A stretch of 46,521 nt of DNA from the sequence record SRR20825006_660, one strand, 5' to 3'. A program made the position numbers and the translations under genes. Below, piece after piece: positions 16,651 through 21,634 of the stretch. The notes under the pieces are model-generated. The model saw only the letters and a list, made by a program, of their open reading frames with translations, searched no databases and was not told where the DNA came from. How positions within the stretch are numbered: position 1 is the stretch's first letter; each line of letters begins with the position of its first letter.

Positions 16651-17138
16651 GACTTAGGAATATAAACCAATCTATTTTGGTGATTTTCTGCTTCGGCAGG
16701 ACTGGCTATTGCGATCGCATTTTCGGCAGCTTCTCGTAAAAAATGAATTGCTTCAGCTTCGGGTCTGTTTGCAAACATGCGAAGGGCTTGAATACCAAAT
16801 GCATTATTATGCAAATCCATCACACGATCCATTTTTCGGTTTACAAAAAGTTCTTCATGTAAATCTGTAAAACGCTGTGCCCAATCTTGCGCCTGGCGCA
16901 GGCTTTGTGTTTTTTTGTACACCGCCTGGCCTAGAAGAACATTCCAAACGGCGTGTCTAAACGCATTTGCTTTATTGCTTTTATGGTGGGTATTCCCGTA
17001 GTATTTAGTGGCGATGCTCAAGGCTTTTTTAGAGGCCTTTGCCGTCAAAAAAACGTATGCCGGGTTTTGAACAAAAAGACCCGCCAGCTTAAAAAGCTGA
17101 GAAAAACTCAATCCTTTTAAACGGGCAAGTATGCTCAT
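16647..17138 (-). CDS. Hypothetical protein, DUF6973-like
   Basis: NAFRHAVW ... HE ... MDLHNN motif. Confidence 0.7.
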
Positions 17139-18166
17139 CGCTCAGCTTTGTATTCTTTTACGGCTTCAATAAACGCACCGGCATTTTCTAGCGGAATATT
17201 CGGTAGAATACCATGGCCTAGATTCACAATGTATTTGTCTTTTCCAAAAGCGTCAATCATTTCGGTAACCATACGTTTTATTTCCGCAGGAGGCGAAAAC
17301 AAGCGCGTAGGATCAAAGTTTCCTTGAAGCGTAATGTTGCCTCCGGTTAAGTAGCGCGCATTACGTGGGCTGCACGTCCAATCTACACCTAATGCCGAAG
17401 CACCACTTTTTGCCATTTCGCCTAGCGCAAACCAGCAGCCTTTTCCGAAGGCAATCACCGGAATTTCTTCTTTTAAAGCATCAATGATCTGCTGAATGTA
17501 TTGCCAGCTGAATTCTTGATAATCTACAGGAGAGAGCATTCCGCCCCAGCTGTCAAAAACCTGAACGGCATTTACCCCAGCTTTTACTTTCTCTTTTAAA
17601 TATAAAATTGTGGTGTCTGTGATTTTCTGAAGCAGTGCGTGTGCAGCTTCAGGTTGGGTAAAACAAAACTCTTTTGCGATATCAAAGTTTTTTGAACCTT
17701 GACCTTGCACACAATAGCACAAGATCGTCCATGGACTACCGGCAAAACCAATCAACGGAATCTCGTCGTTGAGTTTTTCCTTAGTCATTTTAATGGCGTC
17801 CATCACATAACCCAGTGTGTCGTTAATATCTGGTACGATCACACGCTCTAGGTCTTTGTAAGAACGAATAGGATCTGGCAACCACGGCCCGATGCCCGGC
17901 TTCATCTCCACGTGAATATTCATCGCCTGCGGAATTACCAAAATATCGCTGAATAAAATCGCGGCGTCCATCCCATAACGACGAATGGGTTGCACGGTGA
18001 TCTCACTGGCAAGCTCTGGAGTTTGGCAACGAGTAAAAAAGTCGTATTTCGCTTTGATCTCTTGAAATTCGGGTAAATAACGCCCCGCTTGACGCATCAT
18101 CCACACCGGAGGGCGCTCTACCGTTTCTCCTTTTAATGCTCTTAAAAATAAATCGTTCTTGATCAT
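17135..18166 (-). CDS. hemE: Uroporphyrinogen decarboxylase
   Basis: [36 protein letters not shown] at 18166 (MIKNDLFL). Confidence 0.96.
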
Positions 18167-18199
18167 AATAGTTTCTTGTCGTCTCGAGCGCACCCGAGG

Positions 18200-19252
18200 T
18201 TAGTTTAAAGCCTTTACCGCCCGCGCAATAACGCTCTCAATGGCAGTGGTATTGGCAACGGTAACGTTTTGGGTATGTTTTTGAACTTCGGCAGCAGTGG
18301 TGTTACCAATGCAAACCGAAAGCATATTCTTAAAATGATTTACAGCCGAAAAACTTTGTACTCCAGACGGACTGAAAAAAAGAACGGCGTCAAATTCCTG
18401 CTTAAATTCTTGCGGATTACTTTTTGTTTTATAGCAAACGATTTCCTCAAAAGACACTTGATTTTTAGTCAAATGTTCCGGAAGTTCGTCTCTTCTTATT
18501 GCACTGCAAAAGAATGAGAAATGCGCGTTTTTATGGTTTTTTACGATAAAATCGGCTAAATCTGCTGCATTTTGAGCGGTTTTCACCACTTTAAAACCTT
18601 TTTTGATTAAGGACCTTTCGGTTTTAGAACCTACGCAAAAACAGCTGAACGTTTCGGTATTTAAATCGGGTTGCTTGTTTAAAAAAGCCTGAACCCCATT
18701 TTTACTCGTGAAAATCAGATTTTCTAAGTTCTTCGGAAATTCAACATCCAGAAATTCAATTTGAATCGCATCATATTCAACCACCGAAAAACCAGCGCCC
18801 AAAATCAAATTCTTTTGAGCAGAAGTGAGTTTTTTTGTGGAAAGGATGCTTTTTCCCTCACCCCCGGCCCCTCTCCCGACGGAGAGGGGAGCGGAAGAAT
18901 TCATTTTAGAACTTTTATATTTTGCAATTGTATCTGTAATAACCTTAGGTTCTTTTAAAACTGTTGTATTTGAAAAACGCAGTACCTTGTAGCCAAGAGC
19001 TTTCAGATGTAAATCTCTCAGTTCATCCTTTTCCTTTTGCTCTGGATGGTTATGATAACCACCATCCAACTCGATGACTAGTTTTAATTCATAACAGAAA
19101 AAATCAACGATATAACCTTTAAGAGGATGTTGTCTTCTAAATTTTAGTCCGTTTATTTTACGATCACGAAGCAATTCCCAAAGCACCTTTTCTACTTCGG
19201 TTGAGTCTTGTCTAAGCAAGCGAGCAAGTTTTATGTGATTGCTTCTTTTCAT
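18200..19252 (-). CDS. hemD: Fusion: N-terminal DUF559 (Vsr-like) endonuclease domain plus uroporphyrinogen-III synthase
   Basis: Residues ~1-110 carry LR..ST..E..LW, FRRQHP, YIVDF, LVIELDGGYH, D..RD..L...GYKVLRFSN. From KSILSTKKL the protein is HemD-like (IFTSKNGV, CVG, FFSPSGV, IGNTTA). Lies between hemC and hemE. Confidence 0.88.
   Translation of the reverse strand: MKRSNHIKLARLLRQDSTEVEKVLWELLRDRKINGLKFRRQHPLKGYIVDFFCYELKLVIELDGGYHNHPEQKEKDELRDLHLKALGYKVLRFSNTTVLKEPKVITDTIAKYKSSKMNSSAPLSVGRGAGGEGKSILSTKKLTSAQKNLILGAGFSVVEYDAIQIEFLDVEFPKNLENLIFTSKNGVQAFLNKQPDLNTETFSCFCVGSKTERSLIKKGFKVVKTAQNAADLADFIVKNHKNAHFSFFCSAIRRDELPEHLTKNQVSFEEIVCYKTKSNPQEFKQEFDAVLFFSPSGVQSFSAVNHFKNMLSVCIGNTTAAEVQKHTQNVTVANTTAIESVIARAVKALN
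18855..18889. repeat. REP-like hairpin repeat, copy 1 (inside the fusion CDS)
   Basis: CCCTCACCCCCGG-CCCCTCTCC-cgac-GGAGAGGGG; translated on the minus strand as PLSVGRGAGGEG. Confidence 0.85.
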
Positions 19253-19259
19253 AAGGGCT

Positions 19260-19294
19260 TCCTTCTCCTTTGGGAGAAGGATTGAGGATGAGGG
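19260..19294. repeat. REP-like hairpin repeat, copy 2 (inverted relative to copy 1)
   Basis: Reverse complement is CCCTCATCCTCAA-TCCTTCTCC-caaa-GGAGAAGGA; 25/35 identical to copy 1 with two compensatory stem changes. Confidence 0.85.
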
Positions 19295-19296
19295 TT

Positions 19297-20214
19297 TTAA
19301 ATTTCTTTCTTAATAGCTTCCATCAATTCGCGGCCGCCTTCTTCCAAAATTTTTAAAGCACATAGCGCACCAAAATCCTGACATTCTGAAACCGGAATGC
19401 TTTCTTTGATCTCTAATTTTTGAGTTCCATCCAGACTGAAAAGCGCTCCGTGAAAATGAATATGGTCGTCTTCAATTTTTGCGATCGCACCAATAGGAGC
19501 GGTACAACCTCCTTCTAATTTCCGAAGAAATTCACGCTCTACTTTTGTGGTAAGCGCTGCATCAGCATCATTGAGTTTTGCACAAGCTTCTTTGCAAAAA
19601 GCATCGTTATCCATCACAGCGATCACCATCGCACCTTGTGCCGGAGCCGGAATCATCCAGTCTAAAACTTTGTGATTCTCGGGCTTTAGATTGATGCGTT
19701 CTAAACCGGCTTTTGCAAAAACAGCCCCCGCCCAATCATTATCGGCAACCTTTTGCAGGCGGGTGTTCACGTTTCCGCGGAGATCAACCACCTGATGCTT
19801 TGGGTGTTTGTTAAGCCATTGCGCTTTGCGGCGTAAACTTCCCGTAGCAATGGTAACAGAATCTGAAAAATCTGTAGCGTTTTTATCAGCTTTAAAAACA
19901 AAAATATCTTCGGTAGCAGCACGAGGTAAAACCGCTCCTTGCACAATGCCTTTAGGGAGTTGCGTGGGAACATCTTTCATAGAATGCACCGCAATATCTA
20001 CGTCGCCGTTGATCATCGCAACATCAAGAGTTTTGGTAAAAATACCGGTTATTCCTAGTTCGTAAAGCGGTTTGTCAAGGATAAGATCTCCGGTTGATTT
20101 TACCGAGATCAACTCGGTTTTATAACCTAAAGATTCCAATTGATTCTGTACGGTGTGTGCCTGCCAAAGCGCTAGTTCGCTATCGCGGGTACCTATGCGT
20201 ATGGTTTTTGCCAA
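19297..20214 (-). CDS. hemC: Hydroxymethylbilane synthase
   Basis: IGTRDSELALWQA, VHSMKDVP, GSLRR, LRGNVNTRL, LEGGCTAPIG. Confidence 0.96.
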   Translation of the reverse strand: MAKTIRIGTRDSELALWQAHTVQNQLESLGYKTELISVKSTGDLILDKPLYELGITGIFTKTLDVAMINGDVDIAVHSMKDVPTQLPKGIVQGAVLPRAATEDIFVFKADKNATDFSDSVTIATGSLRRKAQWLNKHPKHQVVDLRGNVNTRLQKVADNDWAGAVFAKAGLERINLKPENHKVLDWMIPAPAQGAMVIAVMDNDAFCKEACAKLNDADAALTTKVEREFLRKLEGGCTAPIGAIAKIEDDHIHFHGALFSLDGTQKLEIKESIPVSECQDFGALCALKILEEGGRELMEAIKKEI

Positions 20215-20217
20215 AGC

Positions 20218-21483
20218 TTAGTTATTTTGAAGTTTAAACACTTTTTGAATCAACTCCAGACTTTCGGTATTTGAAAAATCCTCGGTTTTTAAGTGTTTTG
20301 CAAACTGAGTAGTAATTTTTTGAATGATGCGCTCGCTTATGATTTCGGCTTGTTCTTCATTAAAACCATCAATTTTTTTGCGCTGATTGTCGATCTCTCC
20401 ATCTTTAAAATCGGCCAATTTCATCTTTAAAGCGCGAATGGTGGGAGCAAATTGGCGCGCGGTTAACCACTCGTAAAATTCCTCCTGAATTTCCTCGATA
20501 ATGGCTTCAGCCTGCGGCAATTGCTTTTTGCGGCGATTGAGCGTATCGTTGGTGATTTTTGAAAGCTGATCAAGATGCACCAGGCTCACGCCGTTTACTT
20601 CTTCAACGTTTTCATTTACGTTTTTCGGAATGCTCAGATCGAGAATAAGTAAAGGTTTCTTGAGGTATAAAAGCTCTTTTGAAATGGTAGGCTTTTGTGC
20701 GCCAGTTGCCACAATGAGCACATCTGCTTGAGCGATTTCCGACTGAATATCAGCGTAATCCTTTACAATAAGATTGAATTTCCCCGCGATACGTTCGGCT
20801 TTATCTTTAGTGCGGTTGATGAGCGTGATGTGGTCGTTTTTGGTGTGTTTTACCAAATTTTCACAGGTATTACGCCCAATTTTTCCGGTTCCGAAAAGCA
20901 AAATGTTCTTTTCTGAAATAAAAGGAACACGGGATAACATATATTGAACCGAAGCAAAACTCACTGAAGTTGCTCCGCTCGAAATATTGGTTTCATTTTT
21001 TATGCGCTTACTCGCCTGAATCACGGCATTGATCAATCGCTCCATAAACGGATTGACCAGATTGAGTTTTTTAGCACGTTTAAAGCCGCTTTTTAACTGA
21101 CTTATAATTTCAAAATCTCCTAGAATCTGACTGTCAAGACCAGTGCCTACTTTAAAAAGATGCTCGACGGCTTGCTCGTTTTTGTACTCGTAAGAGACCG
21201 CTTTAAACTCTTCAATGGTGCCGCGCGTGTGCTCGCATAACAATTTGATGAGGTCTAAAGGTTCTTGAGCAAAACCATACAATTCGGTACGGTTGCAGGT
21301 AGAAATAATACTCAAGCCTTCAATACCTTCCTCGTGAGCACGACTTAAAATCGCTTCTTGAATGGTACTATCAACACTAAAATGCCCGCGCGTTTCAGCA
21401 TCAGCTTTTAAATAGCTTAAGCCAATGGCGAAAAAATCACCGGGATAAGCCGGGTAAAAATGTCGTTTGCCGTTTGTATTCAT
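20218..21483 (-). CDS. hemA: Glutamyl-tRNA reductase
   Basis: STCNRTELY, GLDSQILGD.EI, GTGKIG, DLSIPKNV; ATG 21483 lies just downstream of a promoter box. Confidence 0.95.
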   Translation of the reverse strand: MNTNGKRHFYPAYPGDFFAIGLSYLKADAETRGHFSVDSTIQEAILSRAHEEGIEGLSIISTCNRTELYGFAQEPLDLIKLLCEHTRGTIEEFKAVSYEYKNEQAVEHLFKVGTGLDSQILGDFEIISQLKSGFKRAKKLNLVNPFMERLINAVIQASKRIKNETNISSGATSVSFASVQYMLSRVPFISEKNILLFGTGKIGRNTCENLVKHTKNDHITLINRTKDKAERIAGKFNLIVKDYADIQSEIAQADVLIVATGAQKPTISKELLYLKKPLLILDLSIPKNVNENVEEVNGVSLVHLDQLSKITNDTLNRRKKQLPQAEAIIEEIQEEFYEWLTARQFAPTIRALKMKLADFKDGEIDNQRKKIDGFNEEQAEIISERIIQKITTQFAKHLKTEDFSNTESLELIQKVFKLQNN

Positions 21484-21494
21484 AAGTTCGGGTG

Positions 21495-21502
21495 CAAATG
21501 TA
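21495..21502 (-). promoter_or_regulatory. -7 promoter element of the hemA operon
   Basis: Reverse complement TACATTTG is a perfect TAnnTTTG, 11 nt before ATG 21483. Confidence 0.7.
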
Positions 21503-21634
21503 TTTCGGTAAAGCTTCAAAAAATAACGCTAGAGGTATGATTTTTAACGATGACCGAATAAATTGTCCTTTTTTTGAGGAAAATGCTGCAAATAGGCTAA
21601 TTTAGTGAGGTGTTGTAAGATGAAGAAACGATAC

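Follow-up and report, generated by a model that had tools for sequence, protein, structure and literature searches.

A stop-less DUF559 nuclease cassette in place of the hemD start codon in a marine Leeuwenhoekiella

In a stretch of 46,521 nucleotides from sequence record SRR20825006_660 (the window), whose host is a marine Leeuwenhoekiella with L. palythoae DSM 19859 and L. blandensis MED217 as its closest named relatives, the gene hemD for uroporphyrinogen-III synthase has lost its own start codon and is joined in frame to a preceding gene for a small DUF559 nuclease. Both are read on the minus strand as a single frame of 350 codons (18200..19252), which starts with ATG at 19252-19250, ends with the stop codon at 18200-18202 and proved free of internal stops in the open reading frame (ORF) listing of the window. 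Pfam detects DUF559 in residues 7-111 (124.9 bits, cutoff 20.6) and HEM4 in residues 149-342 (116.3 bits, cutoff 27.5) of the encoded protein. An initial annotation had described one 350-residue ORF joining a nuclease to HemD, and the ORF listing and the Pfam matches fully agree with this description. No stop or frameshift separates the two domains, and the same fused frame is present in the nearest genome, G001, where it is 96% identical to the window at the nucleotide level. Eight other species of Leeuwenhoekiella and two metagenome contigs have it as well. The best-supported reading, which we hold to be somewhat better than even, is that the nuclease cassette supplies the start codon of HemD.

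The module had been proposed to be an insertion, and this is borne out by alleles that lack it. A plain HemD protein (P0008), 92% identical to the HemD part of the window, led to two metagenome contigs, L117 and L118, which are cassette-free and carry hemC and hemD genes 94-96% identical to those of the window at the nucleotide level. In both, the hemC stop codon is followed by a C-rich spacer of 15-17 nucleotides (..CCCTCATCCTCAA..) and then by A, ATG, AAA and AGC. The window shows the same spacer, then 426 nucleotides (19280 to 18855), and then A, AAA and AGC; the hemD ATG is gone. The insert, the boundary of which is ambiguous by one A, occupies the exact place of the hemD start codon, and since this codon is missing in the window, the start of HemD must fall inside the insert. 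The peptide KSILSTKKL at the beginning of the HemD part had been taken for a HemD N-terminus without its methionine. Stand-alone orthologues indeed start with MKSILSTKKL, MKTVLSTKKL or MQSILSTKRL, in line with the ATG AAA AGC of L117 and L118. Across the fused proteins, the methionine of M-K-(S/T) is replaced at the junction (..GEG-KS, ..GEV-KT, ..VR-EKT, ..MR-VKT), or else the first three HemD residues are absent (..GVR-VLSTK). An origin of the empty alleles by simple deletion from the filled allele was considered and rejected: excision of the insert restores no in-frame ATG, and the empty alleles are therefore not simple deletion products of this filled allele. As a separate observation, the ATG of L117 and L118 is set off from the C-rich spacer by three additional bases near positions 1485-1503 (..CAAT-A-ATG and ..CAAC-A-ATG); the same spot reads ..CCTCA-ATG in G022 and ..CCTCG-ATG in G007 (loci L013 and L014 compared).

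The fusion is not confined to the window. Nine of the 23 genomes of the genus carry it and 12 have a stand-alone hemD; G014 (81% complete, two HemD pieces in different frames) and G015 (81% complete, no hemD match) were left out of these counts and of the trees described below. The stand-alone proteins begin with M-(K/Q/P/D)-(S/T/A)-(I/V/L)LSTK, and one of the 12, that of G023, has no methionine before ILSTK. A sample of 401 Flavobacteriaceae genomes from 302 genera contained ten fused cases and one in which nuclease and HemD are split (G394). In a protein collection, 1983 entries matched the window protein at E ≤ 1e-10, and DUF559-HemD fusions account for 100 of the 121 sequences that were aligned, i.e., the window and 120 listed matches. 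They stem from Leeuwenhoekiella, Aquimarina, Dokdonia, Flagellimonas/Muricauda, Ulvibacter, Cochleicola and other genera, are 42-95% identical and are named 'uroporphyrinogen-III synthase' or 'DUF559 domain-containing protein' in the database with no comment on the fusion. At least 99 database protein clusters bearing these names are chimeras of this kind, which is of relevance to annotation. A contig of 1683 nucleotides and about 93% identity from a marine metatranscriptome (RNA library X2, record 16) runs from hemC through the cassette and the linker into hemD. As evidence of transcription this contig is weak, and it documents no more than the occurrence of the joined form in that library: the RNA-library evidence consists of assembled contigs of relatives, in which DNA carry-over is possible and from which transcript ends, strand and translation are not readable. 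Two contigs of another RNA library, X3, match the cassette side up to 18855, the outer end of the linker repeat, and carry unrelated sequence beyond this point, which would suit a related cassette adjoining something other than this hemD. HemD was also found in frames of 527-546 residues in G176, G202, G146, G409 and G178, which by size alone is what would be expected for a HemC-HemD fusion.

The initial annotation had claimed that the element provides the start codon of hemD, and the lost ATG, the conservation of frame across alleles and the existence of linkers devoid of start codons all support this. Nuclease and HemD share one open frame in all ten Leeuwenhoekiella alleles (nine genomes and the window). 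Measured from the end of the nuclease core, the linkers in the genus are 32, 33, 40, 41, 43, 50, 55 or 73 residues long. Such differing lengths within one open frame require at least six insertions or deletions (indels), all of them frame-preserving. In three of the ten alleles (G021, G008 and G018), not a single in-frame ATG, GTG or TTG is present between the nuclease core and ILSTK; the sole start codon in the linker of G019 is a TTG within the hairpin, and G012 has one ATG, 55 codons upstream. Ten of the 11 genomes with a cassette at hemD in the family sample are fused, and among loci found through the nuclease with HemD downstream, 8/8 keep the same frame, six of them belonging to the same genus genomes. 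These three counts, 10/10, 10/11 and 8/8, are free of ascertainment. In 69 of the 100 fused database proteins no methionine occurs beyond the first 15 linker residues, and P0112 from Aquimarina, which lost its nuclease core by an in-frame deletion, is still fused.

The insert (18855..19280, minus strand) consists of an upstream hairpin, a DUF559 ORF without a stop codon and a downstream inverted repeat. The upstream repeat copy (19257-19294) lies between the hemC stop codon and the nuclease ATG, in the orientation opposite to that of the linker copy. It comprises a C-rich head, CCCTCATCCTCAAT (19281..19294, minus strand), which is situated outside the insert, and a hairpin (19261..19280, minus strand) with a stem of 8-9 bp and the loop CAAA, for which a folding energy of -14.6 kcal/mol was calculated (z = -4.27; equally good folds in 0 of 200 shuffles). 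The DUF559 or Vsr-like nuclease domain, assigned by Pfam and by fold match, is encoded by 18920..19234 (minus strand). The downstream copy (18855..18892, minus strand), made up of a hairpin at 18868-18889 and the reversed head at 18855-18867, is translated as ..APLSVGRGAGGEG.. and forms the linker; its hairpin has a z-score of -1.6 with equally good folds in 12 of 200 shuffles. The junction peptide had been stated to be the hairpin repeat read on the minus strand, and it is: a 9-bp GC stem, a loop of four nucleotides and the tail GGGGGTGAGGG, together spanning 18855-18892, encode PLSVGRGAGGEG. HemD follows from its second codon (K134) to its end (18203..18853, minus strand), as delimited by HEM4 and the stand-alone orthologues.

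A regular expression for the strict hairpin pattern found two copies only in the window, both bordering the nuclease ORF, and a genome pattern search returned 4-10 strict copies in each of four related genomes and none for the reversed control. The dispersed copies in related genomes are mostly intergenic, and the unit of head plus hairpin matches them. In an AlphaFold2 model of the fused protein, only residues 120-131, i.e., the translated repeat, have a predicted local distance difference test (pLDDT) score below 50; the translated repeat would form a disordered linker of about 12-24 residues. Nearly all linkers of the fused proteins are recognizable as translations of the same kind of repeat in either orientation, PSPxGEGxGVR-like one way and LTPxLSxRRG-like or HPHPxLLPQGRR-like the other, and a rough regular expression assigned a repeat type to 83 of 100 linkers. 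One reading frame of the repeat contains a stop, while the other two yield G-G-E-G or G-V-R, as seen in G394. In seven relatives (L007-L011, L013 and L014), the repeat also resides in frame inside a loop of HemD (between ..AFLNK.. and ..CFCVG..). Examples from this loop are ..KLPSPAGEGPGMR.. and ..SLLLEERAEVR..; the carriers are fused or plain, and the HemD of the window has no loop copy. In the fused protein P0057 (395 residues), the first 35 or so HemD residues (ILSTKKLTSSQKK..) are present twice with a second repeat-like linker in between, which suggests a local duplication at the junction.

Several results bear on whether both halves of the fusion are functional. Pairwise ratios of nonsynonymous to synonymous substitution rates (dN/dS, NG86 method) for the fused alleles of the genus amount to 0.03-0.15 for DUF559, 0.11-0.27 for HemD, 0.03-0.13 for HemC and 0.01-0.07 for HemE; the nuclease part is under purifying selection. 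Five putative catalytic residues, D50, E61, D63, H67 and D76, are conserved to at least 90% in 98 fused proteins, and the nuclease is predicted to be active. The AlphaFold2 model, computed from a 98-sequence alignment, shows two well-folded domains with a mean pLDDT of 89.7. Its nuclease part matches the DUF559-like structure 3hrl (E = 1.4e-20; Foldseek TMt 0.87, root-mean-square deviation 2.4) and the catalytic domain of I-Bth0305I (3r3p; Foldseek TMt 0.77, E = 1.6e-3, 26% identity), while the HemD part matches uroporphyrinogen-III synthases (1jr2, E = 1.8e-12; 3p9z, TMt 0.80, E about 1e-12). The fused protein misses the NCBIfam equivalog cutoff (best 62.6 bits versus 275). As the stand-alone orthologue of G003 is also below its cutoff (67.4 versus 332), this is an effect of the lineage and not of the fusion. 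A role of the window protein in a defence system was considered and dropped, as all PADLOC matches were weak (DpdF 2.3e-6, mREase_II 1.4e-5, HEase 2.5e-4).

The distribution of filled and empty alleles is patchy, which is compatible with gain or loss alike. On a tree of HemC plus HemE with 22 rows, the fused or plain state changes at least seven times, and five of these changes are forced by well-supported branches. In each of the sister pairs G008/G003 and G006/G007, one member is fused and the other plain, although 91-99% identity is maintained in the flanks as far as the junction. The clade of the window (seven rows; relatives of about 95% identity) is a mixture of interleaved filled and empty alleles; the row nearest to the window is empty, and the shallow forks have support values of 87-93. 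The assertion that the element is locked in by selection holds in part: within an allele the fusion guards the frame, but it is weakened as a statement about the locus because empty alleles persist among close relatives, with at least 5-7 changes of state, and because the cassette is a separate gene in G394. The cassette is old. The 99 DUF559 domains linked to HemD group together in a single clade (SH-aLRT 98) that excludes stand-alone domains and those linked to RecG, QueG, MetH or restriction-modification enzymes, in a tree that has few columns and the rows of which were sampled through the fusion itself.

It had also been suggested to look for DUF559 beside other housekeeping proteins, and inspection of 60 loci of nuclease relatives did uncover such cases. 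In other Bacteroidota, DUF559 is inserted in frame between the two helicase lobes of RecG (L061 by Pfam; L062 and L064 by eye), before the B12-binding domain of MetH (L084, Pfam) and in an MmeI-type restriction-modification enzyme (L068, Pfam), and it is fused N-terminally to QueG (L090 by Pfam; L091, L092, L097 and L098 by eye). GC hairpins are present at the borders of the inserts in L061, L084 and L090, where the borders were looked at. The flanking repeats in MetH of L084 are direct, and both read TPLLRGAGGVS. In the family sample, 15 further nuclease matches reside in frames of 845-881 residues, the size of the RecG form, an assignment by size alone. Stand-alone DUF559 paralogues of the genus (L048-L052; 40-47% identity) have varied neighbours and lack the strict hairpin; a PPLRRGG-like peptide upstream in L048 is perhaps from another repeat family.

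The explanation that best accommodates these results as a whole, at a probability of about 0.55, is as follows. A 426-nt cassette, composed of a GC-rich hairpin, a gene for a 116-residue DUF559 nuclease (Vsr/EDxHD-like PD-(D/E)xK) with its own ATG and no stop, and an inverted hairpin repeat, has inserted between hemC and hemD at the hemD initiation codon. Translation would start at 19252, with ribosomes reading the nuclease, the repeat and then HemD from its second codon, and the uroporphyrinogen-III synthase encoded by the operon would be the C-terminal part of a 350-residue fusion. Since HemD would be lost along with the nuclease through any frameshift or nonsense mutation there, the frame of the cassette would be shielded from decay. 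Frame protection alone is insufficient as a cause of conservation at the amino acid level, and the nuclease itself is additionally kept intact by selection. The cassette represents an old, hemD-specific lineage of a wider family of hairpin-bounded, stop-less DUF559 cassettes, which housekeeping proteins tolerate in frame at their linkers or N-termini, and it segregates as a presence/absence polymorphism, in the manner of a homing-type selfish element or of one spread and lost by homologous recombination.

A more far-reaching proposal can be put forward only tentatively: the hemD cassette may be one lineage within a class of mobile elements that has not been described before. Elements of this class would be homing-type genes for Vsr-like nucleases that do without introns and inteins and the hairpin ends of which are translated as flexible linkers. 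It is conceivable, if somewhat doubtful, that such an element invades essential genes (HemD, RecG, MetH, QueG) in frame and in the case of hemD replaces the start codon of the host. With the same reserve we suggest that the host's need for HemD protects the nuclease frame while the element segregates. The cassette would then be mobile and its spread would be driven by the nuclease. If the proposal is true, selfish nuclease genes gain a third route into essential genes besides introns and inteins, namely translation as an additional domain that the host protein tolerates; the terminal repeats of the cassette serve as ready-made linkers, and the large uncharacterized DUF559 family gains a concrete biological role that can be tested. 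The hemD case is the cleanest test bed, with an empty site defined to the base, coexisting filled and empty alleles in culturable, harmless marine bacteria and easy complementation. Since the start codon of the host has been removed, experiments can decide sharply between the candidate starts.

A number of observations weigh against these interpretations, both with regard to the start codon and with regard to mobility. As the initial annotation noted, the window contains an in-frame internal ATG (18902..18904, minus strand; Met117), a candidate alternative start of HemD. The main rival for this window, unlikely in our estimation but a live alternative, holds that HemD is made mainly from this codon as a 234-residue protein with a 17-residue leader including the translated repeat. 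The 350-residue product would then be minor or absent and the DUF559 frame would run into hemD merely for lack of a stop. The ATG at 18904 has an A-rich upstream context, is situated 19 codons before ILSTK and corresponds to a GTG in G001 and in G004. The original hemD ATG is retained within the fused frame of G011, and the plain protein P0098 begins at that methionine, followed by the same translated repeat. The linkers of 31 of the 100 fused proteins contain a methionine, in 11 of them four or fewer residues from ILSTK, and it has to be kept in mind that the database proteins are in frame by ascertainment. In G394, cassette and hemD are two genes, the former closed by a stop of its own and the latter equipped with its own ATG: on the reverse strand of L114 (about 1370-1540), the nuclease stop TGA lies inside the repeat's GGGGTGAGGG and is followed by a second repeat and then by hemD. 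HemD can do without the nuclease domain. On the other hand, an internal start does not account for G021, G008 and G018, where the linkers offer no ATG, GTG or TTG and HemD is nevertheless under purifying selection. It would also leave the frame unprotected, which nonetheless is kept throughout the genus and in all but one of the cassette-bearing family genomes despite many indels. Met117 is conserved only in the closest relatives of the window, and the 9-bp GC hairpin lies 13-37 nucleotides downstream of the ATG at 18904. TAnnTTTG is the Bacteroidetes-type -7 promoter consensus. This motif is absent from the coding strand of the cassette, with the nearest occurrences at 19906 and 21502, which is a weak negative only. 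Read-through and independent initiation may coexist.

With regard to mobility, synonymous divergence (dS) between most species is saturated (> 1) in cassette and flanks alike, and dating of the cassette against its flanks by dS failed for this reason. The identities of DUF559 and HemD co-vary (r = 0.65 over 4950 pairs), no near-identical cassette was found in diverged hosts among these pairs, and no co-conversion tract around the junction was detected in the sister pairs at a resolution of 100 nucleotides. The C-rich head beside the insert, which makes the upstream hairpin look like a full repeat unit, occurs in the empty alleles too; it may be left over from an older repeat or may belong to the target. 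The pattern fits a site-specific selfish element that cycles through gain and loss in recombining populations. An old, vertically inherited insertion that was lost many times, or a neutral polymorphism that recombination has reshuffled, would fit equally well. It is rather doubtful, in our view, that DUF559 is one half of a REP/RAYT-like pair, a resident enzyme passed on vertically and responsible for maintaining or dispersing the head-plus-hairpin repeats, its place at hemD and the fusion being accidents of a stop-less gene and homing playing no part. The gene is indeed flanked by inverted repeat copies, with 4-10 strict copies in four genomes compared to none in the control, it is the sole DUF559 match in G001 at E ≤ 1e-3 with the 350-residue query, and the cassette is old and co-diverges with its host. 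Single copy, flanking repeats and vertical inheritance also characterize REPIN-RAYT systems (PMC3116915, PMC3337134). Against such a pairing, plain G007 has nine repeat copies and its fused sister G006 has ten, the stand-alone paralogues L048-L052 are devoid of the strict hairpin, copy numbers stay far under REPIN levels, the enzyme is of the PD-(D/E)xK and not of the Y1/HUH transposase type, and a polymorphism among relatives of about 95% identity is unlike the stable vertical inheritance of RAYTs.

It is improbable that the nuclease fold has been domesticated, i.e., recruited into a bifunctional enzyme for a host role linked to HemD or heme such as regulation, localization or stability. The strong purifying selection on DUF559, which is more conserved than HemD, and the single clade of HemD-linked domains that stays with hemD across many genera would be in line with this. 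Close relatives, however, lack the cassette, it is a separate gene in G394 and rare in the family (11 of the 401 sampled genomes), the same kind of cassette occurs in the unrelated RecG, MetH, QueG and restriction-modification enzyme, and the linker, predicted to be disordered, is nothing but a DNA repeat in translation. It is highly improbable that the fusion is an artefact of sequencing or assembly, or a dead pseudogene whose place in heme synthesis has been taken by a second HEM4 paralogue. All 23 genomes of the genus, whatever the state of their hemD locus, do encode such a second HEM4-family paralogue (about 25% identity), and heme synthesis may therefore not depend strictly on the fused HemD; neither HEM4 protein received an equivalog-level assignment in NCBIfam. 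The shortfall of the fused protein against the NCBIfam cutoffs would also suit a dead gene, but the plain orthologue misses the same cutoffs. Furthermore, the fusion occurs in independent assemblies of nine species, in metagenome contigs and in a contig from an RNA library, and its HemD part combines a dN/dS of 0.11-0.27 with a confidently predicted HemD fold. The paralogue in G001 (L113:602-1354, 250 residues) adjoins a gene for a multi-pass membrane protein.

The preferred reading, a cassette that is translated as part of HemD, invites comparison with several known systems. The earlier idea of a homing-like element with no splicing gains support from the homing-endonuclease fold, from the sister cassettes in RecG, MetH, a restriction-modification enzyme and QueG, and from the lack of any Hint or intein family among the Pfam matches of the 350-residue protein (DUF559, MTES_1575 and HEM4 only), a search that did not extend to group I or group II introns. 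I-Bth0305I is the prototype of the established Vsr-like 'EDxHD' homing endonuclease family (PMC3239194), and the hemD cassette likewise has a small nuclease of the Vsr-like fold. As is the case for homing endonuclease genes, it is found at a single, exactly defined position of a conserved housekeeping gene, its presence and absence alternate among close relatives, there is one cassette lineage per host gene, and a decayed copy exists (P0112). Unlike these genes, it is translated within the host protein without an intein and is free-standing only in G394, its nuclease of about 116 residues carries no NUMOD or helix-turn-helix DNA-binding extension, it is bounded by hairpin repeats, and it shows no clear sign of recent horizontal transfer. 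In contrast to inteins, the hemD insert is N-terminal, hence there is no N-extein.

REPIN-RAYT systems (PMC3116915, PMC3337134) resemble the cassette in that an enzyme gene lies between inverted copies of a dispersed GC hairpin, and in an association of gene and repeat that is old and largely vertical. They differ in their enzyme, a tyrosine (Y1/HUH, IS200/IS605-like) transposase instead of a PD-(D/E)xK nuclease, and in the abundance of the repeat, which for the cassette is low (4-10 strict copies); moreover, the cassette gene is stop-less, fused to a host gene and polymorphic among close relatives. Rickettsia palindromic elements, repeats of about 150 bp translated in frame within genes (reviewed in PMC10969869), share with the cassette a palindromic repeat that is read in frame at a permissive site, here the linker and in relatives also a surface loop of HemD. 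Unlike these elements, the cassette repeat is only about 40 nucleotides long and accompanies a complete nuclease gene, and whereas the Rickettsia elements sit inside a protein, insertion of the cassette removes the start codon of the host. The literature searches brought up no description of a DUF559-HemD fusion. None of the papers listed as mentioning DUF559, one of which deals with the Vsr-like protein VsrA of Caulobacter, has it in the title or abstract; likewise, no title or abstract among the matches listed for Vsr-like, repeat-linked, mobile or in-frame elements dealt with the cassette.

The genes surrounding the fusion belong to heme biosynthesis, and the order hemC-hemD-hemE is common to the window and 21 related loci. 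Upstream, hemC for porphobilinogen deaminase (19297..20214, minus strand; 305 residues; Porphobil_deam 230.9 bits, Porphobil_deamC 59.5 bits) ends with its stop codon at 19297-19299, directly upstream of the cassette region. It is preceded by an ORF of 433 residues (20218..21519, minus strand), known from the ORF call alone, which by position is probably hemA for glutamyl-tRNA reductase. Downstream follows hemE for uroporphyrinogen decarboxylase (17135..18193, minus strand; Pfam URO-D 443.6 bits). In G010, another Leeuwenhoekiella species, the spacer between hemC and hemD contains a different ORF of 224 residues (L021:790-1461). Its HNH_3 and NUMOD4 motifs are those typical of free-standing homing endonucleases, and selfish nucleases of more than one type may thus have settled at the hemC-hemD junction.

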